A stretch of 64,000 nucleotides of DNA from Raillietiella orientalis (GCA_036172245.1 JAYWIR010000044.1:1550001-1614000); one strand, 5' to 3'; numbered from the stretch's first letter, positions 1 to 61,378 are shown. Numbers and translations are program-made. Notes: generated by a model not told the origin, from the letters alone.

Positions 1-805
1 TGTATGGACAGTTCGCTGCTCCCCCTTGCTTGGAAACCAGCCGTGCTGCTTTTCGTTCACTGGGGTTTTCAGTGCAACGAGCGTTGGCATCGTGACTCCG
101 GGGGACTTGCGTCTGCGAACTGCGTTCTGTGCGGATCGACGGAGTCGATTCCGCACCTACTTCTGGACTGCGGTGTCCTACAAGGACTGTGGCGTAGGCT
201 GGCAACAGCACTATTGCATCCCGTGGACACCGCAAGAGACTTGCTGCGACGATTCTTCACGCGGAGCGGGCTTTCACTAAGCGCAAGGATTGCAACCATC
301 GGTTGCATACGCGCGATAGTTTCCGTCCGCCAGGCGTTGGTAATCAACGGACAGCACCAAGAGGTAATCAGCAAAGCATCCTTCTACATGGGAGCATCCG
401 CTAGATGGCCTCATTTGACAGAGGAGACAAAGAGGAATCTCGCCGCAATACACCGCCGGTTTACACACGCTCAGCAGCGGCCAACCCGGTGATCATTGAC
501 CTACCCTCCATAAACTATTTTTGTATTTTCTTTTTACATCCGCGTCCCCATAGGCTCCGGAACATTCTAGGTGCTCATCGTCTAAATCCCCGTGAGTACG
601 GAGCCTAACCAAAAACCCGTTACCCTTCCCTCCAGTTTTTGATTTTTGTTTGTTTCCCCTCATTCCTCCCACACTGCGAGCGGTTTGTTTACCAAGCCTG
701 CGTGCCGGTAATTTTTCTATGTTCTCTGTCGTTCTGTTGTTGAAGGACATTGTCCCTGAGCAGTTTATTATTATTAATAAACGCCCCGGCGTGACCGGGT
801 GATAA
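1..805 (+). mobile_element. 3' end of an L1/Tx1-like LINE (E0): ORF2 C-terminal zinc finger and 3' UTR
   Basis: ORF 4..492 carries CVLCGSTESIPHLLLDC. A T-rich UTR follows, then AATAAACGCCCCGGCGTGACCGGGTGA at 776-802. Near-identical to 59973-60777. Confidence 0.9.
776..802 (+). terminator. Conserved 3'-terminal signal AATAAA + CCCGG-loop-CCGGG hairpin; representative copy
   Basis: Present at 13 element 3' ends with a conserved stem and variable loop. The function is inferred. Confidence 0.7.
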
Positions 806-1361
806 ATTTCAATCTCCGTCTGCTAACAGGTGAGCCACAAACACAAGAGAACGCGATGAACGAGTTGTGCGCCGCCATGCGTGCGCGCAACTTGTTCGCG
901 GGTGAGAGGGGAATGGTCCGCAGCATCGACCACGTCTTCCTCGACGCTAACCTGTGTTCACGGGTCGGCAAACGGGGGAGGGTTGCGTCGACGTTGTCGG
1001 ACCATTCCCGGTTAATTTTCGAGATGTGGCCTCGAGACAAAGGACCACCGTCCAGGGATTGGCGTATGCCGGTGGACTGGACGCGACTCTCAGGTGCGAA
1101 GGAACGCCTTCGCGAATACCTGAGAAGCGTCACGCTCCGGAATCTCCATTGAAACCCGGGTGCGCCGGGACGTTTATTCTCTCGAATAAACCTATACAAT
1201 CTGTTACTGGACCAGTAGTCCAGCCACGCCCTGGAAAGATATAGCTTGCCGGGCTACCGGTGCGCAGACCGGCGCGGTCGACCTCGGCAGCAGAGGGGAG
1301 GGGGAACGAAACAAAAAGAAAACAAAAAATAAACAAAAATCAGGGAGGGAGCGGGAAGGGA

Positions 1362-4300
1362 TCACAGTCTGCTGGGAGGCTCCGTCATCCTCTGGAGGAT
1401 GCCGGCAAGCTGTTTCTGCGTGTGTGGTTCCAGATGGGGCCATCGCGTCGCCATCCTGAGGAAACGGGCAGCATACACGTTGGCATCCCTGTCGCTGGAT
1501 CCTCCCGTCGATTTGCTCCATGCCACGACGATCCCGCGTAGGCAGCACAGGGCTGCAAGCAAGGCCGCTGGAGGCAGGGCGTCACGGACGAAGAGGGGGC
1601 GCAAAGCGTCACTGGGGTTGCCTCCGGGGATCCCCACGGCTGCGGCAAAGCGTTCCCACAAGGGACGGAGGGCAACACAATCCACTAACAGGTGGGGGAG
1701 GTATTCCCTCTCCCCGCACCTGACACAATTAGGGTTGACAACCCCCGCGTCCAGTGGTTTTGGCGGGCGTTGCAAGGAAACCCCCAATGCAACACCATCA
1801 GTGCCGACTGTTGCCACTTTATGGGGAGGGTGCGCGAGTCCATAAGCACCATGGGACACTCGAGATGTTCCTCTGGAACATCCAGTAGCTCTCCCCAGCG
1901 CAACAGTCCATTTGGGGTGGTCCTCGGGGTCGCAGCGTTGGTGAGCTGACCCGTTCTCCAATCCCCGTTCTTCTTTGCCCTGCTGGCGATCTTGAAAGTA
2001 ACCTCCCATTGTGCCGCGACGTCGCTGCCCAGATGTTCCCGTAGGGTAGGCAGTACCGCAGCAAGGGAGGTTCTTTGTGCCCACGCTCTCCTTCGGGGAT
2101 TCTCGATGATTTCTCGGAGCGTGCGGCGGGCATGCGGCCCGAACAGAGCTATTCGCTCGTGTTGCGGGCTCTGCTCCTGAATCATCGCCCACGTGCGGAC
2201 GGTTTCCTGCAACCAGGCAGGGCCGTTCGCGGGGCGTACGAGGATCCGCGCCGAGTTGTTCTTCACGAGCTTGGCCGCCCTCCGAAGTTGAAGTCCGCAG
2301 TGGCAGATGGGGCTTCGGAGTGCAAAGTAGGACGAGAGTCCCGCATTGCCGGTGGCCCGCTCGACGAGGAGACGTGCAGGGAGGCACCGAGGGGTGCACC
2401 AGTTTTCTGCCATAAAGGCAACAACTCGGAACTGGAGCTGTAGCTCCAGCCGCTCCAACGTCAGGAGACCCAGAGCACCATCCCGACGAGGAGCGCACAA
2501 GTCCGAAAGACGGACTCGGGGCCTCCCTCTGCCCCAAAGGGCGATCCTCAGGAGGTCCTTCGTCCTCTTCTTTGACTTCGCTGAGGGGGGGCAAACAAAA
2601 AGCAAGGAGCGAAGGAGGGGGGCCGCAAACGCGTTCCACGCCGCGGCCCGTTCATGCAGGAAGAACCTGCCGTCCTGGAACGGGCCGATCGCCTCCTGAG
2701 CTTTCTGAAGGCAGCCGGACCACGCTTCCGCAGGGGAGTAATCCCCCAACGGCACACCAAGGTACTTGAAGTACCTCACCGTGGGGATCCTTAAACGGAC
2801 CCAGTCCTGCTGCCCTGCCCACGCCGCTCCGACTGGCATTACGGACGACTTCGCCCTGTTCACCGTCAGTCCTGTTCCACGACTCAGCAGGTCGAAGAAG
2901 TCCTCGACCGCCGAGGCCGGGGTGGACATAGGCAGCAGCAGCAGAAGGTCGTCCGCGTACGCCGAAACCGCAGGCGTACCGGGGCAATCGCACGGCAGGT
3001 GCGCAAGAGTCTCCCTGTACGCTCTCAGCACCAATTCGAAAAAGGCGCTAAAGAGCAGGGGGCTAAGGCTGTCTCCCTGCCGTATGCCGCGTCGCACCGG
3101 TACTCCGTGCACGGTTTGCTCGCTGAAAAGAACATTAATGAGCGCGTCGCGCCAGCTGGAGCGCAGGTAGGCCAACAAAGAGGCCGGGAAGCCCAAGCGT
3201 TCCAGAAGCTCCAAGAGGAGATTCTGGTCGACGCTGTCGAATGCTTTACGCAAGTCGACAGCGACCGCAAGGGCTCCCTTCCCCACCCGACCGTTCCGTC
3301 TCCCGCCAACGGACGCACCGGAATTCCGGCTGCTTAATAAGCCCCTTCCTTGTTGGAGCTCTAACCATGTGGAAGCGTGGAACAGTTTCGCCTCCATGCT
3401 CCGCCCGGGAACAGCATAAGTCTGTTCCGGGCTGATGAAGATGTTGGCAACCCGTCCCAGACGCTCTGCCCACATCTTGGCTATCAACTTGGCGTCCGCA
3501 TTCACTATTGTGATGGGACGCCAGTTGTTCATGCTCCTTAGGTCTCCTCCCTTCGGGAGGAGCCGAACCTTTGCTGAACGAAACGAGGTGGGAACGTCAC
3601 CTGTTACACGGATCAGCAAGGTGAGCTGATGTACCAGGGGAGTAAGCTGAGCCGCGAAAGTTTGGTAAAACTCCGCGGGCAGGCCGTCCTCCCCTGGAGC
3701 CTTCCGCCTCTTGAGCTTTCCGATGGCCGAGAGGATCTCGTCCATCGTGGAAGGCTCGTCGAGGCTTCTTTTCTCCTCCTCCCCGATCGCTGGAGCACCT
3801 TCCGGAAGCAGAAGTCGTGAGACGTCCCGCTCCGGAGGCGCCCTGGCGTACAGGGAGGAGTAAAATTTCCTGACTATCCCGCGTTTCTGAGCGGGAACCG
3901 AGTGCTCCCGGCCCTGGTCGTCCAGCAAGCTGGCCGACCCGGATTGCCAGGCTTGCCTCTCGGCTCCCGCTCGATACTCTGCTAACCTGCGCATGTCGGG
4001 GGTTCTTGCGTAACGTCGGGCCTGAAGATAGCACCTTTCGTTACGCGGCCCCTCCCCAAATCCCGCAGGTAGGCGATGCAGGGGGAACTGATCGCAGAAC
4101 TCCTGGACCGACCGCTTGAAGCGGTCCCAGTCCTGAAGTGTCTGCATCCTGAAGCTTCGAATAAACGCGCGGAGGTGCTCCGCCGCGTCGGGAAACTTCA
4201 GCCAGTCCCCTGGCAGACGCCACGCTGACGAGGGGGGGCCCTTGTCGCGCGGACGCACTTCGAACATGATCCGACCATGGTCCGACAGCTCGGATGGTAC

Positions 4301-4942
4301 CTTGCCGCGCCTGCCAACCCGAGAGCATAGGTGCTGATCAAGGTACACGTGATCGATGCTGCTTTCCATGGCCGTGTCCCCGGCCAACAAGTTGCGCGTT
4401 TTCATTTCTGCGCACAACTCGTTGACGCGGTCGTTCAGTGTATCCGGCGCACCTGAAAGCAGGCGCAGGTTGAAATCACCTGCGATCAGGTGCGCTTTGC
4501 AAACTCCTGCATCGGTCAGCCAATCGCGTCTCAGGGCAAGGTAGAATTCCCTTCTTGCCTTCGCCCTCAACGCGTTGTTTCCGCGAGGAGCGTATAGGTT
4601 GGTGAAGACCAGGTCGATAGAGTCGGACCAGCTGAGAGTCAGCTGACCGACGCGACCTGCGTCATCGAAGCGAACGTCCTTTATTGCGGTCTCGATGGCT
4701 GGCCGAAGCAGGAAGGCGACACCGCTTGATTTCGCGGTGCCGCAACGCCACAACAGCCGCCCACCCGAGATCCGTTCGATCTCCCGGGCTTGATCTGCGG
4801 AGATCAGGTGGATCACCTGCAGCAGCACCAGGTCGAAGGATGCCAGGGTGGCGGCCACGTCACGCCTCTTGCCGTCGTCGCTTAGCCCGTTCACGTTCCA
4901 ACAGGCGATCAGAAGACGACGGCGAGAGGCGATTCCCGGCAT
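1362..4942 (-). pseudogene. E1 ORF2: APE endonuclease, reverse transcriptase and zinc finger; nearly intact
   Basis: 1085-aa ORF with WNVNGL, GDFN, IDH, SDH, KAPGEDG, WRPIT, KAFD, RQGDSLSP, YADD and KYLG. A frameshift near 1740 moves CVRCGEREYLPHLLVDC into ORF 1362..2639. The endonuclease QE motif is mutated to QV. Confidence 0.93.
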
Positions 4943-6584
4943 TATGGCTGGGAAAGTGGCGTCGCGACACCTGCCGCGGGGCAGTGTCGGAAAGGTCCAT
5001 CGGTACGAGGACGGAGGCCTCTTCAGGCGCCTGGGGTACCTGTTCGGCCTCCATCCTCACCATCCCCTCCGTGTCCGAGCGTGGAATTCTCTCGGGCGAC
5101 GGATCCCGGGAGTTTCCCACGCTCATGGCACCCTCGCTACCGGAAGCCATCTCTTCCCCTTCGTCGGGGGAGACGATCTTCCGGGGCATTGTGGACTTTC
5201 GTCCTGCCTTTTTGCGGAGTGCCGCGGAGATGGATGCTGTGTTTCCGGCCTTCACCTCGGGGTCGGAAGTGGCCGACTCCTGAGGGGAAGCCGGACGCCT
5301 GACGGCCTTCTTGCCAGCCTTGGGGGCAACCGGCTGCAGCGAGGCAGCCAGCTCCTCCGCGGCGCGCTCGAAGGCGACGTCATCGAGCGTGGGCACGATG
5401 ACGGACGCCGCCGCCTCGCTTCCCTCCTTGTTGACTTTGTCAACGGAGGGTTGAGCAGGGGCAGCAGCGAGTTCTTTAGCGCCGCATCCGTCGATGGCGG
5501 GAATCCGCTCTACAACGACGCAGCAGCTTTTAATTTTTTCGCGGCGCAGGGCGGTTTCGCTCCGTTTCGCCACGTTCTTTCCCTTCTTATGGGAGTTTTT
5601 CTTGGGGTCGACCTTCTGCCACCCTGGCTCTTGACCCTCGCCCTCGACCTTTTTGGCGTTTTAAGCAGAAGTCTCGGGGCTGGCCTTCGCCTTGGTGGCG
5701 GAGGTGACCTCCTTAGCAGCATCACGAGCTGCCAGCTTCTTTCTCTTTTTTGCCGCGCGCTTTCTCGCGTTTTTCGCGGACACGACGCGGACTGTGTTTT
5801 GGGGGCACACCAGACGGGTGTGCCCCGCTTGTTTGCATTGCTGGCACTGCACGTTTGGACACCTCATTTTAAGGTGACCAAAGCTGCTGCAGCAGCCGCA
5901 AAACTTGGGTTTCCCCACGTACCACACGTCAACGGATTCACCGTTGACGGTAAGTTTGTGGGGAAACTCACATCCCTCGCGAACCGTCACTCGCGCTGCA
6001 CCCAGGCCGCCAAGCACCCCGTCGTAATCGACAAAAGGAGTAGGCTTTCCCCACAGCGCGTGGACTGTTGCAAACTTTTCTAATTCGTTCCGGACGGCCT
6101 CCTTCCTCATCCGGAACGTGATACCGGTCAGGTGAATGATCACCGACCGGTCTTCAGTAATGGGGAGAAGCCTCCGGCTGCCCATAATTACGGGGGTTCG
6201 CAGAAGTCTCTGCGCAAGAGTTGCCTCCTTGCAGATAACTTCCACAAATTGACCCCCGCTTCTGACGGACATAGCCAGAAGTTCCTCTTTTTGTACACCG
6301 AGAACGCGCATCGCCTGCGAAAAGGCGCGCGCGTTCTCGGGAGAATATAAACCGCCTACCTTATATAGAAGGGGTGGGTTATACCCCTCCTCCAGGTAAG
6401 CGCGCATTTCCGCCATAGCCGCTGGCGTAGGTGCCGCAGCCACGGCGTTCCAAGCCCTGGGTAGGGCCGGGGGCGCATCCATGCTGGCGGAAGCCTCCAC
6501 TGATGCGAGAGCCCCCACCTCCATCTCCTCCGGGGGCAATGAGGTCATCGACCCCGGATCCTCACCGGTGGTGGTATCAGGCAT
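4860..6584 (-). pseudogene. E1 ORF1 (gag-like nucleic-acid-binding protein, two CCHC knuckles) with one in-frame nonsense codon
   Basis: 5661..6584 has CGCCSSFGHLKMRC and CQQCKQAGHTRLVC. TAA at 5661-5663 is followed in the same frame by 4860..5573; the homolog 38417..39487 reads through this position. Confidence 0.88.
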
Positions 6585-6640
6585 TGCTGCCTAATCCTCC
6601 ACCCACACCACGCACAAGCACCAACGGAAATGAAACTCAG

Positions 6641-6666
6641 GAGCAACGAAAAGACACGTCCGCTCG
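6641..6666 (-). promoter_or_regulatory. Conserved 5'-terminal motif (candidate internal promoter); representative copy
   Basis: CGGACGTG-TCTTTTCGTT-GCTC. Equivalent motifs occur at seven other element 5' ends. Confidence 0.6.
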
Positions 6667-9600
6667 ACGCTCCGGAATCTCCAGGACTGGGACCTTTTTC
6701 AGGAATCGGTCTGCGAGTTCTGCGAGCATTTTCCCCTGGATCGCCTGCTTCCCGGATTTGGCTAGGGTGTTCGCAACCATCGAGCCTATTTACGGGTTCG
6801 TTGTTACGAGAGAACCCCTAATGTATGTCGCTTGGCCGAGTACCGCGCTGGGGCCGAACGCCAAGCCTGGCAAACCGGGTCGGCGAGCTTGCTGGACGAC
6901 CAGGGCCGGGAATGTTCGTCCCCGGCGTCGGTACGGCATCTCGTGCGGAGTTTTTATTCCTCCCTTTACGTCAGGGAGCCCCCGGATCGGAAAGCCTCTC
7001 GGCCCTTGCTTCCGGATGGCGCCCCGGCAATAGGGGAGGAGGAGATGGAAAGCCTCGACGAGCATTTTACCACCGGCGAAATTCTCGCCGGTATCCAAAG
7101 GCTCAAGAGGCGTAAAGCTCCAGGGGAAGACGGCTTGCCGGCGGAGTTCTTTCAGTGCTTCGCGGAAGAGCTGGCACCCCTGCTGCTTAAGTTGATCAGG
7201 CTGATCCGAGACGAAGGCGATGTTCCCGCCTCGTTTCGGTCAGCCAGAGTGAGGCTCCTTCCGAAAGGGGGAGACCTCAGGGATTTAAAGAACTGGCGTT
7301 CAATCACAATAGTGAATGCGGACACCAAGTTGCTAGGAAAGGTTTCAGCAGAGCATCTGGGACGGGTTGCCAACATCTTCATCAGCCCGGAACCGACATA
7401 TGCTGTTCCCGGGCGAAGCATGGAGGCGAACCTGTTCCACGCTTCCACCTGGCTAGAGCACCAACATGAAAGGAGCTTGGTGCGGACCTGGAATTCCGGT
7501 GCGTGCGCCGGCAAGGGGTTGGATGGTTGGGTGGGGGAGGGAGCCCTTGCGGTCGCAATCGACTTGCGAAAAGCATTCGATTATGTCGACCAGAATTTCC
7601 TTCTGGAGCTTCTGGAACGCTTGGGCTTCCCGGCCTCATTAGTGGCCTATCTGCGCTCTAGCTGGCGCGACGCGCTCATCAAGGTTACTTTTAGCGGGCA
7701 GACCGTGCACGGCGTGCCGGTGCGGCGTGGGATCCAAAAGGGATACAGCCTGAGTCTCTTGCTCTTCAGTACCTACTTTGAGTTGGTACTGAGACCGTAC
7801 AGGAGAACTCTGGCGCAGCTGCCGCACGACTGTGCCGGGTACGCCGGTCGTTTCAGCATACGCGGACGACCTTCTGCTGCTGCTCCCTATGTCCACCCCG
7901 GCTGCGGCCTTCGAGGAGTTCTCCGACCTTTTGCATCAAGGAACCGGACTTACGGTCAACAGGGCGAAGTCGTCAGTGATGCCAGTTGGTGCGGCGTGGG
8001 AAGGGCAGAAGGACTGGGTGCGTTTGGGGATCCTCACGATGAGGTACTCCAAGTACCTTGGTGCGCCGTTGGCATACTACTCCCCGGCGACAGCGTGGTC
8101 CGGCTGCCTCCAAAAAGTAGAGAAGGCGATCGGCCCGTTCAGAGGCGGTAGGTTTTTCCTGCCTGAACGGGCAGCGGTTTGGAACACGTTCGCGTCTCCT
8201 CTCCTCCGCCCTCTGCTTTTTGTTTGCTTCTCTACAGAGAGAATTAAAAAGCGGACAAAGGACCTCATCCCTATCGCCCTTTGGGGCAACGGGAGGGCCC
8301 GAGTCCGATTAAAGGACTTGTGCACTCGTCGTCGGGACGGTGGTCTGGGCCTGCTGACGCTGGAGCGGCTGGAGCTTGAGCTCCAGTTTCGCTTGTCGGC
8401 ACTCTTTCCAGAGTTGTGGTGCACCTGTTGGTGCGTCCCTGCACGTCTCCTTCTCCAGCAAGCCACCGGCAAGATGGGACTGATGTCGTTTCTTGCACTC
8501 CGTCGCCGCGTCAACCGATGCGGACTCCAGCTACGGTGGGTGGCTGCGCTGTATCGGAAAAACTTAGGATTGCTCACCTGTCGCCCTTTGAACGGTAGTG
8601 CCTGGTTTCAGGAAACCGTTCGAACGTGGGGACAGTTCGGCATGCAACGCTTTCAACAGTAACGAAAGTTTCTGTTTGGGGGTTACAGAAGTTGCACGCT
8701 CCGCGAGTTCCTGGAGGATCAAAAGAAGAGTGCGTGGGCAAGCAGAACCCCCCTTGCTGCTGCGCTGTCTTCCCTGATGGAGGATCTGGACAGCGATGTT
8801 TTGGCGAAGTGGGAGGTTACAGTAAAAATCTCCGGGAAGGAGAAGAAGATAGGAGAGTGGAATATGGTCCAGTTGACAGACACTGCGACCCCGAGTACGC
8901 CTCCCAATGTACTTCTGCGTTGAAGAGCGCTGCTCGATGTTCCCATTGAACATCTGAACTGGTTCCCGGTGCTCATGAACACTTCCGCCATCCTTTTAAA
9001 ATGGCAGGAGACGGCTCTCCTGTTGCAGCACTGGGGACTCATCTGCAACGCCCGCCGACACCACTGGACCTGGGGAGCGGTGGACCTTAATTGCGTCAGG
9101 TGTGGGGAACGGTAGTCCCTTTTCCACCTGCTAGTGGATTCTATTGCCCTTCGGCCACTTTGGTTTCGCTTTGCCGCGGCCATCGGATTCCCCTGCGGTA
9201 ACCCCAGGGACGCACTGAAAGCCCTCTTCGCTGCTGACGCCTTTCGGCCAGCGACCTCGTTAGCAGCTTCGTGCTGCCTACGCGGGATCGTCACCGCTTG
9301 GAGCAAGGCAACGGGAGGTCAACGCGACCAGGGTGCCATCTTGCCAGCCTCTTAGTTTCTGAAGTGGGCCTCCCAATGGCCATACCTGGATCCAGTAATA
9401 CAGAAGGAGCTTGCCGGCATCCTGCAAAGGATGCAACGGCCCCACCAGCAACTGTAATCCCTTCCCTCACCCTCCCAAGTTTTCTTTTCTTTTTTGTTTT
9501 GTTTTTTGTTTTTCCCCCTTACCCCTGCTTCCGTGGTGGACCGTACCGGTCTGCGAACCAATGACCCGGCAGGCTCTGTGTTTCTTCGTGCGTGGCTGGA

Positions 9601-9674
9601 GCAATGGTCCAGCCACTACACGTCTTTGTAAATGTTTGTTTTATAATAAACGCCCCGGAGAAATCCGGGTGAAA

Positions 9675-10052
9675 ATCGAACGCTTTACAGAGAGCGACGG
9701 CGACCGCTAAGGCTCCCTGCGTTCCTTCGTGCCTTGAACCCCGCCGCTTACCTTTGGCAGCGGCGATTTTAGCTGCCTGGCACTACTGCGCCACGCGCTG
9801 CTGCAAATCGAACCATTTTAAAGGAAAGAAGAGATTCGCGTCCATGGACCGCCCCGGAACAGCATACGTCTACTCCGGACTTATCAAGGACTCCGCGATT
9901 CTCCCCAGGCGCGCGACCCATAGCTTGGAGAACAACTTCACGTTTGAATCCACCAATGTGATCGGACGCCAGCAGATCACCGCCTTTCGGCAGTAGACTC
10001 ACCTTTGCTGACCGGAAAGAAACCGGAACATCGCCGGTCTCTTGCATCAGCG
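9675..10052 (-). pseudogene. RT fragment (LMQETGDV...LLPKGG...AVAVALCKAFD)
   Basis: ORF 9769..10047 and adjacent frames. It ends at the AFD codons where the H1 3' end abuts. Confidence 0.85.
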
Positions 10053-11679
10053 ACGGTCGCGTACGCCCGTGCTTTTGCGTCGCTCCGCGGTAGATTGGCT
10101 CTTGTGTGTTTTTGTTCTGCTGGGCTTCTGTGCTGCAATGGGAGCAAAGAAGAACTTCAGCCGTAAGAAGGAAACGCCACCTGCTCCTGAGATGGCTGCT
10201 TCGGCTGCTAGTAAGGAGCCTCTGTCCTCGCAGACGGCGAGGACATTCGCCCAGGTCGCTGCCCTCGCGGCTACGATGGGACCTTCGCCCGACAGCCCTG
10301 AGCTTCAGGCATATGTAGCAAATGGCTACACGCCTGCACTCAGGTATAATTTAAGTGTCCTTTTGCATGAGCGGTTTGGGCGCGAGTTTGGCTAGGAACT
10401 CCAACGGATTGGAGTTCAAAAAGGCCAACTGGAGTCCATCATGCCCATAAGTGGGTGCGGCTACTGGGAGGTGTCCAGTAAGGACGCTCTCCTTACGCAG
10501 CGTTTGCTGCACACGCCGCTGCTCATTCGTGGGCAGGAAATACTCCCTGTCACAACGGACCAGTCGTTCGCTGTCCGGCTCAGTGGAGTGTGTAAGGGCC
10601 TTTCGGACCCCCAGGTCGTGGAGTCCCTTGAAAATTTCGCTACCGTCCACGCGGTTTGGAGGCTGCCAAACCCTGCTGAAGGGTTAGAAGACCACCACAG
10701 CAAGCTCGCGCAAGTGCGAGTGACGATGGCGGATCGCCGTGCAATGCCCACGCGACTGCAGGTGGATGGAATGACCGTCCGCCTGTGGTTTGGCGGGCAA
10801 ACGCATGTATGCTCGGAATGCGGGCAGGAGGGTCACCGCATTACGAAGTGTCCCTCGGCCGCTTGCCGTTACTGCCACGAGCACGGGCACACTAAAGGAA
10901 CGTGCCCGGAGCTCCTTTTAAAAAATGAAAAGCGCAGGAACGAATCGCGTTCCGCATTGCGGAATAATCGCGGCGAATCGAGAGTAAGAAACATCGAAGC
11001 TCCAAAAAGCGTTGCGAAAACCGCGACCACGCACGTGCAGAAAACTGTTTCTCGCCCCCACAAAGAAGGGGTTTAAAAACACAAAAAAACTCGTCGCTGC
11101 AAAGCCTCCGGCTATCCACCCCAAGGAAGCTCGCGAAGAATGCGACTTTTCTACGAGACCTCGCAGCCAATTGTTGAATGCAGGAGACATTGTGCCGAAG
11201 GTCAAAGAGCCTCGTACTGTCGGCATCACGACCGCGAAGCCTCGTACCAAGGCCTCGACTAGCGGCGCGGAATGCGGTCGTTCGCCCGATACGGGAAAAA
11301 CAAGCCTGCGGACAGAGGACACCGCGCCGTCTGAAGCTACTGCGGCCAAGGTGCCCCAGGCACCGAGTGCCACGAAGAAACAGCCGGCAAATCCGCAGTC
11401 CTCGCGCGCGGACGCAGCGCTTACTGTGGCCAAGGAAGAAACTGCTAGGGCGAGCACAACCGCTACAGCAGTGCCCCCAACGGTCGCAAAGGCAACGTGC
11501 GAACCCTCCGATCTGGAAGAGGCAGCGCCTCTCGCGATCGCTAGGTTTCCCCAAGTCCCACAAGGGGTGGGGTAAGTTTATTTTTCTATAAAAATACAAT
11601 ATTTACATTCGCACTCTCATTCACTCAATACAAACATTTTGCACTTGGGGGTCCTTGGGTTGCACTAGAGTTCTGCTTT

Positions 11680-14600
11680 TCAGGAGGGAATTCCAGCTGG
11701 ATGGTCCCGGACGTTGTCCTGGATCCTCTTTAGGATGAATCGGTACGTCCAGGCGTGGATCTTCCCGCAGTTCCTGATGCCGATTTCCCTCTTCAAGAGC
11801 CCTTGTAGGATCTCCATCGGTGGTGCGGCTCTCCTGGCTTTCCTCATTTTCCACCACCACACAAGTATGGCGGTGATGAAGAGGGCGATGGTCGTCCTCA
11901 CCATGAGATTGTAACAGGGAACATTACCATCCCCATGAAACATCCCGGCGAGGATCTCCATAACGGACTTGTTGTAAAGCCCTATGATCCTTTTCAGGAT
12001 CAGCCAGTCATGCAGCAGTGTGGGACACGTCAAGACGTGAAGTCTCGTGTCGTCGTCTCCACATGCTGCGCAGTCTCGATCTTCTTGTCTTCCTGTGAAG
12101 TGCTGCAATCGGGAACCACTCTGGATTCCTCCGTGATAAAAGATCAGGAGGTCATCCTGGGTGCCCGGCGGAAGGTCACTCCTCCAGAGCGTCGTGCCGA
12201 TCGCTAACAGGTTGAACCGTTCATTCCCGTAGCGTTCGGTGGCTTCCTAGAGGGCACTGGTGTCACGGTCGTTTTCTTTGATAAGCCTTCGGAGGTTTGT
12301 TCTGGTTACCCTCGACCATGCGAAGTCGTTGTGGTTGAACCACACTTCGCGGGTCCTGTGGGTAAACCTTCCTAAGATCATCTCTGTATACCGAAGTATA
12401 CGAGTTTGATGTAGGTAACCTCCTCGCCTCCACTCCTGAATTTGCAGTAGGGTAACTCTGGGCAGCTGGTAGATCCAGCTTCTCGTGTCCGGCGGGACAG
12501 GAAGCATCCAAGGGATCACCAGGATGGACTCGTCCTGCCAGAGTTCCCTGCTTCGCGGCACGATGTTGATTTGGTGCTTTCGCACCAGTCGTTGCTTCCT
12601 CCTCCACGTCGGTTCGATTGTTATCCATTTCCCTACTTTGCCTAGCAGCGCAGTCATCAGGCCTTTCGAGTTGTTAAGCAACAACGCGTAGGCCCTGTGC
12701 GCCGCATGCGGCCAGTCATCCCAGTGAGTGGCAATGTCCAGGATGTTTCGCGTATCCATGATTTCCATGGAATGTGCAAGCGACTTCATCCCAGAACAGC
12801 TTTCTTCCCTGGGACGACACAGGGGTTTCAGTCTTACTCTTGGGCGATAGTGGCCCCAGAGTGTTTTTCTTTGAAGCTTGTCGAACTCCATAGTAGTGTC
12901 CTTGTTCATCCTCGCGAATTCCGCCCCGAAGAGCACTTTCGGAAGGAGTACTCCGTTCCATATGTTGGCCTTTCGCTTCATCTTAAGGTCCGTTCGGGTG
13001 TACTTGGCTGCTTTTTTGGCCGTTTTCCCCAGGATTTCCTCTCACAGCAGCATCGACGCAGAGTCGTCGCCGATGTAGACACCCAGGTACTTGTCCGTGT
13101 CCACCGTACGGAATCCACTACCCGTTAGAGTGGAGAGGTTAAGGATTCCGACGGGCAAAAGCTGGCTCTTCTGGGAATTGATTTTTAAGCCCAAGCCCTG
13201 TTCCATCAGGTCCACCACATCCAGAAACGCACGCTGATTTTTTTCTTCCTTGATGAAGAAGAGTAGATTATCGACGTATGCCAGATGGGTAAGACGCTGG
13301 CCATCGATGGTAATCCCGCTCAGTCGTCCGCTCTTCTCGATAAAGGACGACAACGCTTTTATATAGATGACGAACAGCATCGGACTTTGCGAGTCGCCCT
13401 GTCGGACTCCTCGTTCCATCTTGATTGCTGCCGTCTCCTGGCCGTTGATCTTGATCCGGCAGTACGGGTTCTGGAGTACCGCCCTCACGAAGTTGCTGAA
13501 GTGTTCCGGAAGCCCTAGCTTCTCCAGAACCTTCAGCAGCATCCCGTGGTCGATGGAGTCGAAAGCCTTCTCCATGTCAGTGAACACCAGCACCAGGTTC
13601 TCGCCGACGTATCGAGTGAGTCCAACAGTGGCCTGGGCACACTTGACATTGTCCGACATGTGTCGTCCTGGGACTGCACATGTCTGAACCGGAGAGATCA
13701 GCCTCGACATGACCTTGCCTAAGCGGTTGGACCAGATCTTCGCCAACCACTTGGCATCGGAATTTAACATCGAGATTGGCCTCCATTGGGCGATCTGGGT
13801 AGAGTCGCCTCCTTTCGGCAGCACTCTCATCCGTCTCACGTAGAAGGACTGAGATAGTCTGCCTTCTTCCCGGATGCAGAGGGTCAACTGGTGGAAGAAG
13901 CGCAGGTAGGCGTGAAGGTACCGCTAATAGTGCATGATGGGTACACTGTCAGGGCCCGCTGCCACGTCTTTGCGAAGTTGCCCAAACGCAGTCTTCACCT
14001 CTTCTTCGGAGAATTCCTCCTCCAGTCTGTTCCGCTGGAGATCGTCGGTCCTCTTCTCGAGGTAGCTCAGAAAGGCCTGTTGACTGGAGCGACACAGATG
14101 TTGTCGCCTGAAGTGTTTCGTGTAATGCCTGTGAAAGGCATCCACGATGTCCTCAGACGACTGTCGCTTTTGACCGTCGTACTGGATGCAGAAGATATCT
14201 GTTGCCAGATTTCTCTTCTCCAGCACGTCGACTTCCCCTTTGATGTTCTTGAAGACGTACCGACTCTTGTACTGATCGAAGTACTTTAAGAGTGAGCGAT
14301 CTTGGATGTTCTGCTCCAGGTACGCCTCCTGCCTCAAGCGGCTATCCCCGAACTGCATGTTTGCAAACAGGTGTATCCTGTGTTTCAGGCTGTCCCAGTC
14401 GGCGACTCTTCGGATTGTTGTTGCCTTCAGAATCGTCTCCAGGACAGCCTGATGTCCAGGATGGGTTTCTAACCAGGCGAGCATGCTGATGAGCGCCGCC
14501 CTGGTGCCTTGCCTCCGCCGAGGATTCCCCGTTCTTAGGGAAAACTGCACCAGGGGGTGATCGGACAGCGTAGTCATAGTGTCGCGAAACCTCTGGATGC

Positions 14601-15198
14601 GGTTCCCAAGTTCGGTGCTGTGCTGTACGTGATCGATCGGCTTGTGGCTTGCTGTTCGCCAGACCAGTCCGAACTCGTCGGATAGCCGTTGATACGCCGT
14701 CCTTTCTCTGGCGTCTTCGGAGTGAGTGATCTCATCCAATATGTTGAGATCGCCAGCAACAATCACGACGTCCTTGAAAGCAACCTTTTCACGAAGTGCT
14801 GCATGCAGCGCCTCCGCACAACGATGTTTTAGCCTGTGCGGCCCGTACACGTTCACCAGGATGAGGTGAACAGTAGCGGACCAGGCCAGTCGCACACCGA
14901 TGGTTCGTCCGGGTTGGGGACAGAACACTTCCAGAATAGTGGGGGCTAAGTGGTTCTTTATTAGCACCGCTACACCCTTGGTGTTCCGTTCTCCTTCGCT
15001 GACGAACATCTGCCCGTTGAATCGCCATTCCATTCGCTGGCTGATCTCGAGACCCATCCTGTGGGTCTCCTGCAGGCACACGATGTCTTGTTGTGCGATG
15101 GTCCGTACAATCCTTCTTCTTTTTCCCTGGTCGATTACACCGTTTACGTTTTAGGAGGCGATATTCAGCCTCCTGGCGTTCGATAGGGAAGAGGTCAT
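11680..15198 (-). pseudogene. E3 ORF2 (EN-RT-zinc finger), disrupted
   Basis: ATG at 15198 gives MTSSLSNARRLNIAS*NVNG, then LQETH, GDLN, IDH, SDH, WRPISML, KAFD, RQGD, YVDN (instead of YADD), KYLG and CAACGDDDTRLHVLTC. Confidence 0.88.
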
Positions 15199-15199
15199 A

Positions 15200-17069: not shown

Positions 17070-17806
17070 ACGATCACAATCAACTAATTAACCGTCGTAG
17101 TGCGCGCAATACAATGAACCTCGAAGCCAGGTCACTGACTCGGCATAGAAAGAGCAATCCTTTGACTGCCACGAAGGTGACTCCGATGCCTCCTTTGTAA
17201 GACGTGGCGAAAGCGACGCCCCTAGAGGAGGTAGCGAAAACTCCGGAGGTTTCCGAGACGAAAGTCGCGAAAGCGTCCGGAAACCGTGAAGGCTCATGGA
17301 AAATTGTAAAGAGAAAAAAAGAAAAATCTTCCAAGAAGGCTTCGCAACCTCCATCCGTTAGCTCTTTGAAGGCAAAGAACAGCCGCGTGAACTACAAAAA
17401 CCCGCGCGGAAGGTTCGTTTGCCCTGGAAAACGCCAGCGCCGTCAACGCGTGCAAGTCCGCCTCTGTGACCGCCGAGAAGACGATTCCGGTGCAAACGGA
17501 CGGATGCAAGCGCACGTAGAACGTGCGAGCATCAGACTCCACAAAGGAGTCCAAGAGCACCGCTAAACGACGCCTTACTCGCGCGGGAGCGAGCGCCCGC
17601 AGGGCTGAAGCCCTGAGGCGTGACACACTCGCCGCGGAACGGCAAGTTCTCACCCCGGAACCCACAGGTTCTGCACCCGGGAAGGAGCACTCGATTACGC
17701 GCAGCAATATGGAGGCTGGTGGCGATTGTGCCCTCCAGCCCGTCCTGCTGCTTACTGTCCGCTCGCCGGGTGAGGCGAGAACCACAGCCTCGCTTTCCCA
17801 GCCGTG

Positions 17807-43201: not shown

Positions 43202-43550
43202 CACCGGATTAGCCTGCACAAATATGTCTTCGGCTGCCGAGTGGGCCCAACTCCCACAGGGCGTAAGGAGAGAGATCGCCGGCATCCATCGCCGGTTTTG
43301 AAAGGAAGGAACGGACTCACCAAAGACCCCTATCCCCTGCCCTCCTTATTTTTCTTTTATTTTTTTTATAGTATTGTATTTGTGGTCCCCTCCCTCTCGT
43401 TCCGGACTTTCGGCATACCGACCTGCGTTTCGGGGATCCCACCCCCTTCGTCTCTTGTTTTCCCCTTTGTCCAGGAACCCTGTTCCCGGATAGTTTACAA
43501 TAAACGCCCCGGCGCACCCGGTTGATAAACAGCCGACCTTCTCCATTGTT

Positions 43551-46707: not shown

Positions 46708-46727
46708 CCGGCGGAATCACCCACCAC

Positions 46728-49490
46728 GGAAGTTTTCACCCGGTCACGCCGAGGCGTTTATTAAAAAGCACTTTACAATTGCGATACTAGACCCCGCTAC
46801 TGCCAATATTTCATGGGACCTGCCAGGAAGCCGCTTCTGAGGACAGCTTGTCCTCCTCAGCAGCGAAAGGGATAGGATGTAAAACAAAAACAAAAATAAA
46901 TGATATAACAAAAAGAAACCATTTCGTGGGCCGGAAAGGGATCACAACCCGCTAGAGGAAAAGACTATCCTTTCCAGGATGCCCTCGAGGTCCCTCGTCA
47001 TAACTCCCAGACTGGACCAGCCGATCGCGATTCGCAGGTATCGACCAGCGTGTACGATGGGATCCCTGTCGCTGCTTCCTCTGTTGGCTGCGCTCCAGGC
47101 GGCCACAATCCCTCGGAGGCAGCAGAGCGCTGCGAGGGTTGAGGTTGGTGGCAGGGCGTTTCTCACGAAGAGGAGTCTCACAACGTCTCTGAGGGTACTG
47201 CCGACCGGCATAGGGAGGGTCGTAGCATAACGTTCCTACAAGGGCCGGAGGGCAGCGCAGTCCACTAACAAATGGAAGAGGGATTCCTTCTCCCCGCACA
47301 CTGCACAGTTCTCTCCCAAGTTCCGCAACGTCATGTAGTGGCGGAGCGCGTTGCAGGGAAGACCCAGTGCAACAACAACAGCGCCGTTTCCTGTTACTTG
47401 AGGGGAAGAATGGAAACGTCTTTAAACAACGGGGCCCACTCTAGGTCATCCGCCGGGATGCCAAGCAGTTCGCCCTATCTCCGTATTGCATGCGGGTGAA
47501 CGCTTGGGGTTGCGGCGTCTGCCAGTTCCCTCACTATCCACCCCCTTAGATCCTCCTCCCTTCCCGCTATCCGGCAGGAGACTTGCCGTCTCGGCTGACG
47601 GCGGTTTTCAAGCGTTCTTCGTAGGAAGGGCAGCGCCGTGGCCAGTGGTGTCGTCTCCGCTCAAGTGCCTCTTGCGGGACACACGATCTTGTTCCGCAGC
47701 ATGCAGTGGCTATAGATGCCGGTGCGCAGGCAGTTGCAGGATTCTCCACTGATGTCTTTCAACTTTGCCCACGTTCCAACTGTTTCTTCCAGCAATGCGC
47801 TGGCGTTTACGGGGTTGCAGGCCATCCACCCGTTCTCCTTTGCCAGGGTGGCTATGCGTCCAAGGAGAAATCCGCATCTTCTTATTTTCCGGTCGGGCAC
47901 AGAAGAAAAGACACGAGTCCTTCAGTCCCGGACACACGTCTGGCAAGAAGACGGGCTGGAACACACCAAAGAATGTTCCACATTTTCGCTGCGATGGCTA
48001 GAATGCGCCAGCGCAGCTGTGTTTCCATTCGCTCCATCGTCAGGACGCTAAGACCTTCGTCCCGACGTGGAGCGAACAAATCCTTTAAAGGCAAACTAGG
48101 CATCCCGCCGCTTCACAGGACGATGCGTTGGAGGTCGTTTGTTCTTTTTTCCAGTTCATGGGGTACGGGGCAAACAAAAAGCAGTGGGCGAAGAAGGGGG
48201 GCCGCGAAAGCGTTCCACACCGCGGCCCGTTCCGGCAAGTGAAGCTTGCCTTCCAGGAACGGGCCCATCGCTGACTCCAATTTTTGGAGACGACCTGATC
48301 AGGTTTCTGACTGGCAGAAGTCCCCCAAGGGATTGCCGAGGTATTTCAAGTACCTCTCCGTGGGTATCACCAAGCGGATCCAGTCAGGCAATCCGATCCA
48401 CGTCGCACCAACCACTACCACCGATGACTTCGCCTTATTTACCCGTAATCCAGTCTTCCGGCTTAGCAGATCGAACAAATCCTCGACTGCGGCTGCCTGG
48501 GCGGACATGGGCAAATGGAGCAGAAGATCATAGGCGTAAGTCGCTACTGCCGGCGTATCTGGACACGAGCTTAGCAGGGCAGCCGATGTCACCCTCTATG
48601 CTCTCAGCACCAGTTCGAAATAGGTGCGAAAGACCAGGGGAATCAGGCTGTCCCCCTGCCGGATGTCGCGCCTCACCGGCACGCCGAACACGTGCTGTCC
48701 TCTGAGAAACAAGCTGATGATCGCATTGCGCCAGCGTGCGCGCAGGTAGACCGTTAAGGTGTCCGGGAAGCCCATGCGATCCAGGAGCTCCAGAAGGAGT
48801 TCTTGGTCCACGCAATCGAACGCTTTGTGCAGATCGACTGCGATCGCTAGAGCCTTTTTCCCTTCCCTATCGTTCCTTACTTGCTGTGCTGGCGCTCCCA
48901 AATCAGTTTTGTTGACATTTCGTGATTTTTCCAAATATTTCTCGCGTCGCACATGGAACCATGTGCTGGCGAAGAAGAGGTTCGCTTCCATGCTTCGCCC
49001 GGGAACAGCGTACGTCTGTTCCGGGCTGACGAAGCTGTCAGCTACCTGCCCCAGTCGCGCAGCCCACAGTCCAGCCAGCAGCTTGGAGTCCGTGTTCACA
49101 ATCATGATCGGACGCCAGTTGCATAATTTTCTGAGGTCTTCTCCCTTAGGAAGGAGCCTCACCCTGGCTGATTGAAACGAGGCGGGAACATCGCTTTCGT
49201 TTCGGATCAGCCTTGTCAATTGGAGCACCAGGGGGGTCAGCGCTGCCGCGAAGCTCTGAAAGAACTTCGCCGGCAGGCCGTCCTCTTCTGGCGCCGGACG
49301 CCTCTTGAGCCTTTTAATAGCGGTGATGATTTCACCGGTCGTAAAAGGCTCGTCGATGCTTTCCTTCTCTTCTTCCCCTATTGCCGGGGCACCGTCCGGA
49401 AGCAAGCGCTGAGAGGCATCTTGTTTCGGAGGCGCTCTAGCGAGTAAGGAGGAATAATAACGCCACACGAGGTGCCGAATTCGGACACAG
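46728..49490 (-). mobile_element. 5'-truncated LINE (E13)
   Basis: RT in 48596..49468 (WRPI, KAFD, RQGD) and 48299..48592 (YAYD, KYLG). 3' terminus at 46728-46762. Confidence 0.88.
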
Positions 49491-52440
49491 GGAAGTTTTC
49501 ACCCGGTCACGCCGGGGCGTTAATTGCTAAACAATTTGTTTTCGCGGTACGAGGCCCCGCTACGGCCAATAGTTCTTTCGACCTGCCGGGAAGCCGACTC
49601 GCAGGCCGGCTTGACTCTCCTCTGCAGCGGAGGGGGTAGGAAGTAGAAACGAGAAGAAAAATAAAAGAAATAAACGAAAAGAAACTATTTGGAGGGCCGG
49701 AAATGGATCACAGCCCGCTGGAGGAAGAGACTATCGTTTCGAGGATGCCCTCGAGGTCCCTCTCCATTGTTCCCAGATGGGTCCAGCCGATCGCGATTCG
49801 CAGGTATCGACCAGCGTGTACGATGGGATCCCTGTCGCTGCTTCCTCTGTTGGCTGCGCTCCACGCGGCCACCATTTCTAAAAGGCAGCAAAGTGCTGCC
49901 AGGGCTGAGGCTGGTGTCAGGGCGTGTCGCACGAAGAGGAGTCTCATAACGTCTCTGGGGGTTCTGCCTACCGGCATTGAGAGGTTCGTAGCAAAACGTT
50001 CCCACAAGGGCCGGAGGGCACCGCAGTCCACTAACAGATGGGGGAGGGATTCCTTCTCCCCGCACACTGCACAGTTCTGTTCAACATTCCCCCACGTCCA
50101 GTAGTGGCGGCGCGCGTTGTAGGGAAGACCTCAGTGCAACAACAAGAGCGCCGTTTCCCGCCACTTTAGGGGGAGGATTGATGAAACAATGAACGACGAA
50201 GGCCATTCTAGGTCATCCGTCGGGATGCCAAGCAGCTCACCCCATCTCCGTAGTTCATGTGGGTGAATTCTTGGGGTCGCGGCGTCAGCCAGTTTCCTCA
50301 TGGTCCACCCAGTCAGATCCTTCTCTTTGCCCGCTATCCGGCAGGAGACTTGCCATCTCGGCTTCCGAATATTTTGAAGCGCCCTCCGTAGGAAGGGTAG
50401 CGCCGTGGCCAGTAGGGTCGTCTCCGCCCATGTGCTTCTGGCGGGACACACAATCATGTTCCGCAGCGTGCAACGGGTGTAGATGCCGGTACGGAGGCCG
50501 TTTGAGGATTCTTCACTGATATTGTTTATCTTTGCCCACATTCCAACTGTTTCTTCCAGCCATGCGCTGGAGTTGGCGGGGCTTCAGGTCATCCACGCGT
50601 TCTCCTTTACCAGGGTGGCCCTGCGTCCCAGGAGATGTCCGCATCTTCTTTTTTTCCGGCCGGGGAACAGAAGAAAAAACGCAAGTCCTTCAGTCCCGGA
50701 CACACGTCTGGCGAGAAGGCGGGCCGGTTCGCACCACGGGGTGTTCCACATTTTCGTGCGATGGCTAGAGTACGCCACCGCAGCTGTGTTTCCATTCGCT
50801 CCATCGTCAGTACGCTGAGACCTTCGTCCCAACGTGGAGCGCACAAGTCTTTTAGAGGCACACGACGCCTCCCACCTACCCACAGGGCGATACGTAGGAG
50901 GTCCTTCGTTCTTTTTCTTAATTCACGGGGTACGGGGAAAACAAAAAGTAGGGGGCGAAGGAGGGGTGCCGCGATCGCGTTCCACACCGCGGCCCGTTCC
51001 CGCAAGTGAAGCTTGCTTTCCAGGAACGGGCCGATCGCTGACTCCACTTTTTGGAGACGACCTGACCAGGCTTCTGACTGACAGAAGTCCCCCAACGGAA
51101 CGCCGAGGTACTTTCAGTACCTGTCCGTGGGGATCCCCAGGCGGATCCAATCAGGTCGTCCTGCCCACGTAGCACCAACAGCAACCAGCGATGCCTTCGT
51201 CCTGTTCACCTGTAGTCCTGTCCCACGGCTCAACAATTCGAAGAAATCTTCGACTACCGAAGCCGGAGCGGACATGGGCAGCAGGAGCAAAAGATCGTCA
51301 GCGTACGCCGACACGGCCGGCGTACCTGGACACGAGCTTGGCAGGGCAGCCAATGTCACCCTGTATGCTCTCAGCAACAGTTGGAAATAGGTGCTGAAGA
51401 GTAGGGGACTCAGGCTGTCGCCCTGCAGGATGCCGCGCCTCACCGGCACGCCGAACACGTGCTGTCATCTGAAAAATACGTTAATGATCGTATTGCGCCT
51501 GCAGGCGCGCAGGTGAGCCAGTAAAGTGTACGGGAAGCCCATGCGTTCCAGGAGCTTCAGAAGGAGTTCCTGGTCCGCGCAATCGAACGCTTTGTGCAGA
51601 TCGACTGCGATCGCTAAAGCCCCCTTCCCTTCCCGGCAGTCCTTTGTTTGCCGCGCTGGCGTTTGCAAATTAGGTTTGTCGTCATTTTGTTCTTTTTTCT
51701 TCTCTTTTTCTCCGTATTGTAGATTGAACCATGTGCTGGCGAAGAACAGGTTCGCTTCCATGCTTCGCCCGGGAACAGCGTACGTCTGTTCCGGGCTGCC
51801 GAAGCTGTCAGCTACCTGTTCCAGTCGCGCAGCCCACAGTCCGGCCAGCAGCTTGGCGTCCGTGTTCACTATCGTGATCGGACGCCAGTTGCTTAATTTC
51901 CTGAGGTCTTTTCCCTTAGGGAGGAGCCTCACCCTGGCTGACCGAAACGAGGAAGGAACATCGCCTTGGTCTCGGATCAGCGATGTCAATTTGAGCTTCC
52001 AGGGGGTCAGCTCTGCGACGAACCATTGGAAGAATTATGCCGGCAGGCCGTCCTCCCCTGGCGCCTTACGCCTTTTAAGCCTTTTAATCGGGGTCCTGAT
52101 TTCCTCGGTCGTACAAGGCTTGTCGAGGCTTTCTTTCTTCTCCTCATCTATGGACGGGGCTCCATCTGGGAGCAGGAGCTGCTTAGCGTTTCACTTTGGA
52201 GGTGCCCTTGCGTATAGAGAGAAGTAAAATACGCGCACGAGGCGACGTATCGAAGCCGGCTACGAGTGTTCCTGGTCCAAATCGTCCAGCAAGCTGGGCG
52301 GTCAGGTTTGCCATGCTTGACGCTCGTCCCCGGCTTTGTGTTTCGCCAAGCGACGGACGTCACGGGTCCTTGCGAAACGACGGGCGTGCAATTACGCCCT
52401 TTGGTTGCGGGTTCCTTCTCCAAATCCCCTCTGTGGAGAG
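49491..52440 (-). mobile_element. 5'-truncated LINE (E14), same subfamily as E13 and in tandem with it
   Basis: RT in 51465..51989 and 51114..51458 (YADD); zinc finger in 49708..50067; 3' terminus at 49491-49525. Confidence 0.88.
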
Positions 52441-59800: not shown

Positions 59801-60464
59801 ACCGGCGTGCTGCGAGGTTTCCTTCACGATAGAGGGAAAAACCAAACTTCTTGGCGCCTGGAAGACGAGTGAGTTGGCGGACGCCGCCACTCCTCGTGTT
59901 ACTGCAAAGGGACTCCTCCGGTGGGAAGAAGAACTTGCTGTCAGCTTCGAAGAACTTGTAGTCCATGCACAGTGTGTTGACAGTTCGCTGCTTTCCCTTG
60001 CTTGGAAACAAGTTGTGCTGCTTTTCGTTCACTGGGGTTTTCAGTGCAACGAGCGTTGGCATCGTGAATCCGGGGGACTTGCGTCTGCGAACTGCGTTCG
60101 GTGCGGATCGACGGAGTCGATTCCGCACCTACTTCTGGACTGCGGTGTCCTACAAGGACTGTGGCGTACGCTGGCAACAGCACTAATGCATCCCGTGGAC
60201 ACCGCAAGAGACTTGCTGCGACGATTCTTCACGCCGAGCGGGCTCTCACTAAGCGCAAGGATCGCAACCATCGGTTGCATACGCGCGATAGTTTCCGTCC
60301 TTTAGGCGTTGGTAATCTACGGACAGCACCAAGAGGTAATCAGCAAAGCATCCTTCTACATGGGAGCATCCGCTAGATGGCCTCATTTGACAGAGAAGAG
60401 AAAAAGGAATCTCGCCGCAATACACCGCCGGTTTACACACGCTCAGCAGCGGCCAACCCGGTGA
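56873..60464 (+). pseudogene. E16 ORF2: EN and RT open for 818 aa, C-terminal region disrupted
   Basis: WNVNGL, LQEIH, GDFN, LDH, SDH, WRPISL, RQGESLSP, YADD and KYLG; zinc finger in 59688..60305. Confidence 0.92.
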
Positions 60465-61378
60465 TCATTGCCCTACCCTCCATAAACTAATTTTGTATTC
60501 TCTTATTACACCCGCGTCCCCATAGGCTCCGGAACATATTAGGTGCTCATCGTTTAAATCCCCGTAAGTACGGAGCCTAACCAAAAACCCGTTACCCTTC
60601 CCTCCAGTTTTTGATTTTTGTTTGTTTCCCCTCATTCCCCCCACGCTGCGAGCGGTTTGTTTACCAGACCTGCGTGCCGGTAATTTTTCTATGTTCTCTG
60701 TCGTACTGTTGGTTAAGGACATTGTCCCTGACCAGTTTATTATTATTAATAAACGCCCCGGCGTGACCGGGTTCTAAATTTTAATCTCCGTCTGCTAACA
60801 GGTGAGCCAGAAACACAAGAGAACGCGATTAACGAGTTGTGCGCCACCATGCGTGCGCGCAACTTCTTCGAGGGTGAGAGGGGAATGGTCCGAGCATTGA
60901 CAACGTCTTCCTCGAGGCTGACCTGTGTTCACGGGTCGGCAAACGGGGGCAGATTGCCTCCACGCTGTCAGACCATTCCCGGCTAATTTTCGGGATGCCG
61001 CCTCGCGACAAGGGACCGCCATCCAGGCACTGGCGACTCCCCGAGGACTAAACGCGACTCTCAGTTGAAAAGGTACACCTTCGCGAATACCTGAGAAGCG
61101 TCACGCTCCGGAATCTCCAGGACTAAGACGTTTTTAAGGAATCGGTCCGCGAATTCTGCGAGCAGTTTCCCCTGGATCGCCTGCCCCCCGGATTTGGCGA
61201 GGGTGCTCGCAACCATCGAGCCTATTTACAGGCTCGTATTTACGAGAGAACCCCTAATGTCCATCGCTTGTCCAAGTACCGCTCTGGGGCCGAACGCGAA
61301 GCCTGTTAATCCGGGTCGGCCAGCTTCCTGGACGACCAGGGCCGGGAATGTTCGTCCCCGTCGTCGGTACGGCATCTC

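Follow-up and report, generated by a model that had tools for sequence, protein, structure and literature searches.

The window analysed here is a 64,000-nucleotide stretch of the Raillietiella orientalis genome (contig C44, positions 1,550,001-1,614,000, in a 210-Mb genome of 491 contigs), and it consists of a stack of nested long interspersed nuclear elements (LINEs) whose 3' ends carry a terminal module made of AATAAA, a GC hairpin and a 5-nt tail. Element B, full-length at 5,518 bp (1149..6666, minus strand), has a first open reading frame (ORF1) with a ZCCHC3-like RNA-binding region and two CCHC knuckles (4860..6590, -, one internal stop), and an ORF2 with an apurinic/apyrimidinic-type (APE) endonuclease, a reverse transcriptase (RT) and a C-terminal Cys/His region (1362..5056, -, frame break near 1700). 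Its terminal module occupies 1149..1178 (-), and a 17-bp target-site duplication (TSD) lies on both sides of the element, the 5' copy at 6667..6683 (-) and the 3' copy at 1132..1148 (-), the latter adjoining the 5-nt tail without an A run. Positions 1-1148 and 59973-61119 are segmental duplicates with 93% identity, one of which was afterwards struck by element B; the other holds the empty target site (61103..61119, -), where the TSD sequence stands once and the hairpin motif is absent. This comparison between the filled and the empty version of the same site, together with the TSDs described below, bears out an earlier reading of the sequence (the original prediction), according to which the motif is the true 3' end of the elements.

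That prediction had listed 13 termini in the window. The motif is present at 13/13, with a variant hexamer in three (32268, 24255 and 49525), and because the 776 and 60748 loci are copies of one duplicated insertion, the termini represent 12 insertion events, not 13. The module at 776..805 (+), which lies in sense orientation inside the endonuclease region of another element, is the duplicate of that at 60748..60777 (+). Further modules are found at 21692..21721 (+), 32268..32297 (+, variant hexamer), 43499..43528 (+, family 3), 46733..46762 (-, family 1), 49496..49525 (-, family 1, variant hexamer) and 34476..34505 (-), the last inserted antisense at about residue 307 of an ORF2, as is element B. 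A 5'-truncated element of 514 bp with the tail GGCAT (42688..43201, +; module at 43172-43201, +) is flanked by a 15-bp TSD (42673-42687 and 43202-43216), and its final T is element-encoded, the target carrying C.

Across the genome, the pattern AATAAACGYYYCGG-N4-7-CCGGGT has 1,869 exact copies (937 on the plus and 932 on the minus strand), compared with 0 for the reversed pattern used as a control; in the window, the 5' 14-mer of the terminus gave 12 matches with at most one mismatch, against 0.11 expected from shuffles. A run of at least six A's beginning within 8 nt past the motif was found in only 8/1,869 exact copies. For closer analysis, 245 distinct termini were taken from the window and 217 loci, picked largely for three families (13% of the copies), and 244 of these 245 motifs connect to a LINE 3' end; the upstream sequence of one decayed motif (L104:463, -) could not be linked to any LINE end. 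No short interspersed nuclear element (SINE) sharing the tail was found among the 245 sampled termini, a set with the bias just described. ARAGORN found no tRNA in the window, a relaxed run over the 245 upstream regions returned scattered low-grade calls on both strands that were taken as noise, and viral contigs contained no match to the motif. Dense terminus clusters resembling the window were noticed at C1:8.01-8.07 Mb, C11:4.62-4.64 Mb, C13:2.46-2.47 Mb and on small contigs, and such piles are possibly centromeric or heterochromatic.

To locate the end of the DNA copy, TSDs were searched at the sampled termini. An upstream match scoring at least 12 was obtained for 62/245 termini versus 10/245 controls; 55 of these matches began at +1 or later, counted from the first base past CCGGGT, and restricting the start to +3 to +7 and the length to at most 18 left 49, a set in which a few may be chance matches and whose start filter favours the result. 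TSD detection was unsuccessful for most nested copies. The 49 clean TSDs, mostly 13-16 bp long, flank elements from 35 bp to 5.6 kb. Target and element are identical at positions +1 to +5 in 15, 5, 12, 14 and 10 of the 49 cases, no more than chance would give, and agreement at +6 is found in 44/49, so the element ends with a 5-nt tail after CCGGGT, with a TSD of 14-15 bp starting directly behind it. The tail has the consensus G-N-N-A-(A/T), with G at +1 in 200/212 termini and A at +4 in 209/212, whereas +2 is A in only 146/212. The predicted end of AATAAA, hairpin and a few A's was therefore right in having no poly(A), but the actual end is more exact than that. When the loop grows from 5 to 6 nt, the distance from AATAAA to the end increases from 24 to 25 nt and the tail length stays constant; the TSD begins at +6 in 21/24 copies with 6-nt loops, and in 13/25 copies with 5-nt loops, eight others of which begin one base earlier. 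The end of the element keeps its distance from the stem, not from AATAAA.

The same TSDs bear on priming. No target begins with AAA (0/49), a terminal A faces a target A in only 3/37 copies, and in 4/11 T-ending copies the terminal T meets a target base other than T and is thus element-encoded. An A following ends in GGCAT or GACAT was seen in 0/36. As the last base can be T, AAA targets are absent and a terminal A is rarely matched, priming between a poly(A) tail and a T-tract, which is how human L1 starts its copy (PMC3649969), cannot apply to these elements. The original prediction had named long poly(A) on young copies as the observation that would count against it; one such TSD-bounded copy exists as an exception (locus L178:7587-7640, contig C46), with A15 between the tail and an 11-bp TSD match, an exact element boundary and a target without an A run. 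It hints at a polyadenylated RNA.

The 5-bp core stem of the hairpin folds at 7/7 ends tested (z from -0.2 to -4.0), and its sequence is strongly conserved. A 7-bp register using the C/T before the stem was considered as obligatory and rejected, as 87 copies, many of them from one subfamily, carry A or G at that position. About 45 of these 87 belong to a subfamily seen in the window at 28873..28903 (-), in which an A before the stem adds an A-U pair, so that a 6-bp stem closes a GAAA tetraloop. Upstream of the hairpin, AATAAAC frequently forms the 3' side of an AU stem, as in the family 0 module at 9645..9675 (+), which has a 6-nt loop. Its mean pairing is 0.50, compared with 0.34 in shuffles, and since this pairing is significant (p<=0.05) in 20/68 non-redundant untranslated regions (UTRs) and not significant in the other 48/68, the AU stem is facultative. 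Further upstream in the UTR of one family group, a second stem covaries, with GTGG/CCAC in some copies and GCGG/CCGC in others (43120-43150, +; 49550-49590, -), a pair having changed from U-A to C-G in 7/28 rows. The loop of this second stem may pair with upstream AGGTC or GGCC to form a pseudoknot, although two-sided changes do not accompany this possible pairing. At seven element loci, Rfam turned up neither a ribozyme nor any other family. The RF00032 covariance model found nothing in these loci either (E<=1) and matched only beside histone genes, where the host's histone stem-loop, of the canonical type found in animals, has another sequence than the element hairpin. The H2B encoded by the host is most similar to PDB entries from Drosophila, which makes an arthropod host probable.

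A 14th terminus in the window (11545..11582, -), also without poly(A), belongs to a sister lineage, here called X, whose ends read AATAAA, then a CCCCA-C-CCC-loop-GGG-ACT-TGGGG hairpin, then AAAC. The element X to which it belongs (about 5.6 kb, 11545..17134, -, 5' end approximate; no TSD was found for this copy) has an ORF1 at 15633-16643 (-) and an ORF2 with internal stops at 11683-15150 (-). Its RT is 27-36% identical to those of the main hairpin families and is sister to them in the RT tree (support 0.981), and no homologue of its ORF1 was found at E<=1e-5 among 953 candidates. The copies of lineage X are 96-98% identical, by which measure the lineage is young; among 122 copies with the exact terminus one carries A6, and at 22/22 read ends there are at most four A's. 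When 21 pairs of ends were compared, three clear non-tandem TSDs and several tandem arrays were found, the rest giving nothing, and the three clear TSDs place the element end at AAAC or one base off, with a 4-nt tail past GGGG. Lineage X was also seen to insert often at the TSD of an X copy already present, generating head-to-tail arrays, and to have two recurrent targets with a common pyrimidine-rich upstream context. An X-type hairpin lies behind a different upstream UTR at L136:6021 (-), so subfamilies of lineage X share the hairpin. The two lineages, although deeply separated, have thus retained one architecture of the end with different stem sequences, and in the sequence data this is the strongest sign that the structure matters.

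With regard to the identity of the elements, ORF2 matches only Exo_endo_phos and RVT_1 in Pfam, without RNase H, and the RT is nearer to human L1 ORF2p (E 2e-45), the closest among solved structures, than to R2 (E 2e-15). Together with 5' truncation and TSDs, these features uphold the earlier assignment to an L1-type lineage. ORF1 gives zf-CCHC matches, and the nearest Atlas clusters contain animal zf-CCHC/ZCCHC3-like proteins; an ORF1 with an RNA-binding region and CCHC knuckles is a feature of the Tx1 clade. By anatomy and targeting the elements appear to be Tx1-type, the RT tree having been built without named Tx1 or L1 reference rows. In that tree (FastTree, 185 rows, 245 columns), 18 hairpin-family rows and one metagenome protein form a clade with support 1.0, the fam20 row being probably the RT of a nested neighbour. 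RT identity among the main hairpin families ranges from 37 to 100% (median 65%), and the motif is nearly invariant across these families. No close named relative was found in the protein collections. Beyond this genome, the relatives are one metagenome protein with 60-72% identity, and a metagenome scan gave 7 distant loci. The second-best relative, an NCBI protein labelled turtle (P0011), is 35% identical and matches in pieces only.

The sequence following the tail is family-specific and present in both TSD copies, revealing short target motifs: TCGA for family 0, CTYC for family 1, CNCC for the GGCAT group and ACAR for family 3. In family 0, TCGA appears in the 5'-copy consensus of 23 TSDs, target information reaches up to 1.0 bit upstream of the nick and amounts to 1.3-2.0 bits at TSD bases one to four, and the motif (GCAS/TCGAR) is also found at non-LINE targets. 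The flanks are ORFs of sister elements in 114/245 termini and in 7/23 of the least biased subset. Family 0 lies antisense at the RT 'KAFD' codons in 36/39 such cases (35 distinct flanks among 37), as in the window at 9645..9675 (+) and at 24225..24255 (-, variant hexamer), and its KAFD insertions were observed in several sister families (window 9676-9715, 24185-24224). The ORF2 endonucleases are about 20 residues short in both lineages: the GDxN-to-xDH spacing is 35-39 residues in all three examined (4238-4939, -; 56840-57550, +; 13927-15150, -), versus a median of 57 among 99 homologues, of which five are equally short. The missing residues lie immediately ahead of the region corresponding to the L1-EN hairpin, which is tied to target reading (PMC1950540).

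Taking these data together, we lean somewhat towards a mechanism in which the ORF2 protein (ORF2p) binds the terminal stem and starts the cDNA at a fixed register without pairing, in the manner of R2, on an RNA that is probably polyadenylated. The end point, the TSDs, the targets and the conservation are observed directly; the binding, the RNA end and the priming chemistry we infer as follows. With the conserved AAUAAA as its signal, a Pol II transcript would probably be cleaved and polyadenylated at +5 or further on. ORF2p would bind the stem, bringing nucleotide +5 into the active site of the RT; the stem being common to the families, binding might also occur in trans. The nicked target would then be extended without poly(A):T pairing, as in R2, so that the tail would almost never be copied; the A15 copy is consistent with a tailed RNA whose tail is rarely copied. 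The trimmed endonuclease, or the whole ORF2p, would read a motif of 4-8 bp extending to either side of the nick, and the frequent presence of this motif in conserved coding sequence of sister elements would lead to nested piles like the window.

Several observations weigh against this mechanism. The stem is conserved to such a degree that two-sided covariation is absent from the 28 ends aligned, and a compensated pair was found in a single copy (L182). The G-U variants that the original prediction had offered as a sign of stem selection are weak evidence: C>T at the outer two 5' stem positions occurs in 211 copies, compared with 150 copies with pair-breaking G>A at their partners (binomial p=0.002, copies not independent). 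The hairpin of lineage X cannot be aligned base for base with the main one. The TSD set with 6-nt loops comes nearly all from one family, so the test of the stem as a ruler contrasts few lineages, and T-ending copies match a target T in 7/11 cases, which hints at one-base pairing in that family. The A15 copy may reflect slippage instead of a copied tail. Finally, the RT of human L1 favours primers with at least four matched bases (PMC3649969), and unpaired priming would for this reason depart from the habit of the protein family.

An alternative that we consider unlikely is that the hairpin is a 3'-processing signal, by which the RNA would be cut at +5 in a histone-like way and lack poly(A), with ORF2p starting at the physical RNA end and AAUAAA serving as a helix arm, not as a poly(A) signal. 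The nucleotide-exact end fits this proposal, as do the absence of an A after GGCAT/GACAT ends and the pairing of AATAAAC with upstream sequence above shuffles, which is also seen in lineage X. In histone mRNA, a 5-nt tail follows the stem, and the tail of the elements agrees with this geometry. However, the hexamer is kept whether it can pair or not, and its spacing from the end is canonical. The histone stem-loop of the host differs in sequence, and Rfam detected no family at the seven element ends. In addition, one copy carries an A15 that does not derive from the target, and the tail of lineage X is 4 nt long.

We regard as doubtful a third possibility, namely that the RNA reads a few bases into the donor TSD and that these bases pair with the nicked target, the fixed end being where pairing begins and the family-specific target motif being carried by the RNA and re-selected in each round. 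Target information is indeed strongest at the first four TSD bases, a length equal to that which human L1 RT needs matched (PMC3649969); the endonuclease is short where L1-EN has its target-reading hairpin (PMC1950540), and AAUAAA is often sequestered. Yet nearest-neighbour copies do not agree at the variable TSD positions (four families, 22 position tests, p 0.08-0.999), whereas they do agree at +3, which the element encodes (p<0.001 and 0.02). Inheritance of target variants with the donor flank, a prediction of RNA guidance, was thus not found in these 22 tests. The target bias extends upstream of the nick, where this RNA cannot pair, and Tx1L-EN is sequence-specific by itself (PMC1950540). 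A bolder version, to which we give equally little credence, holds that the clade has replaced both docking halves of L1, poly(A):T priming and the DNA-reading hairpin of the endonuclease: the module would suppress the use of AAUAAA, read-through bases would pair, and the RNA would guide the choice of motif. If true, such an RNA-guided motif would let families home into conserved codons of their relatives.

It is very improbable that these are ordinary poly(A)-primed L1 copies with eroded tails and an incidental hairpin. AATAAA 24-25 nt before the end and the predominance of A at +4/+5 would be expected from such copies, but young lineage X copies have no tail, A-rich targets number 0/49, T or C is the last base in some families, and the TSDs adjoin +5 at constant length, a geometry that excludes tail erosion. 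There is practically no chance that the motif, instead of being a LINE end, represents a target site or some small element in its own right, since, although the sequence past it is family-specific, that family-specific part is present in both TSD copies, the motif is linked to LINE 3' ends in 244/245 cases, and the filled/empty comparison at 61103-61119, where the empty site lacks the motif, excludes it.

Hairpin-bearing ends have been described in the L1 clade by Ohshima (2012), who inferred stringent recognition for lineages with a conserved 3' hairpin (PMC3472496). In the maize LINE1-1_ZM group ('monocot 1a') and Chlamydomonas L1-1_CR, as here, the 3' end is far more conserved and forms a hairpin; there, however, the stem covaries, the loop and flank are conserved and SINE partners exist (PMC3472496), whereas here the stem is kept and the loop varies. 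L1-1_CR also ends in poly(A) (PMC3472496), in contrast to the base-exact end without a 3' repeat in this animal host. A poly(A) end is found in 224/233 flowering-plant L1 families, and nine plant and five algal L1 families have no 3' repeat (PMC3472496), so the absence of a tail is by itself no novelty. The L2-clade elements UnaL2, ZfL2-1 and ZfL2-2 share with the present elements a 3' stem-loop near the terminus and the lack of poly(A), but they end in short tandem repeats, and ORF2p binding has been demonstrated for them (PMC4176376, PMC3747384). In ZfL2 the loop carries the specificity and the stems can be swapped (PMC4176376), the opposite of the conserved stem here and a further point against the stem-binding mechanism that we favour. 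The stringent-type mechanism of the original prediction is partly supported, as regards the L1-group affiliation, the true hairpin end without poly(A) and the stem-fixed distance, and departs from the UnaL2/ZfL2 model in that the stem is kept and the loop varies. The elements work like stringent LINEs while being L1-group elements, and not like relaxed (mammalian-type) L1, which has a 3' poly(A) tail and a TTTT/A target.

Among animal L1-group elements with APE and RT, Xenopus Tx1L, Keno, Kibi, Koshi and the crocodilian Tx1-Mar likewise have family-specific targets (PMC4494074, PMC1950540), some of them inside other transposons, with tandem insertion at the TSD as here (PMC4494074, PMC1950540). 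In contrast to that clade, the targets here are short motifs, often in sister-LINE ORFs, and the endonuclease is about 20 aa shorter; the SINEU mobilised by Tx1 carry poly(A). R2 primes without complementarity between RNA and target, its start being set by protein-RNA recognition (PMC3649969), and offers an analogy of mechanism only, as it has one ORF, a restriction-like nuclease and a 28S rDNA target. Zepp of Coccomyxa is an L1-clade element that also forms GC-rich nested clusters (PMC3446292), but it ends in poly(A) (PMC3472496) and has one cluster per chromosome, in contrast to the many families and dispersed copies found here. The histone mRNA stem-loop (RF00032) resembles the module in placing a hairpin a few bases before a tail-less end, although the element ends do not match that family. 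In a literature search that did not extend to subscription papers or Repbase, no account turned up of an animal L1/Tx1 lineage whose end lacks a tail, is exact to the base and keeps its stem; the concept is already known, and it is the geometry, the depth and the coupling with a short endonuclease that were not found in this search.

Relaxed retrotransposition that depends on poly(A) has L1-type ORF2 proteins as its model, and the idea of stringent L1 ancestors has been based on a few cases from plants and algae. The clade described here, an L1-group clade of an animal (27-100% RT identity), combines a base-exact, tail-less end and a 30-nt module common to many families with short family-specific targets. 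As a precise, tail-free and motif-directed inserter of the APE type, it is also of interest for RNA-templated gene insertion. It provides a compact system for asking how an L1-like RT picks its start without poly(A), whether families with one stem can mobilise each other in trans, and what guides target choice by an APE endonuclease that has been trimmed. On the sequence evidence, these elements suggest that the copying enzyme finds its start from RNA structure and not from pairing of an A-tail.

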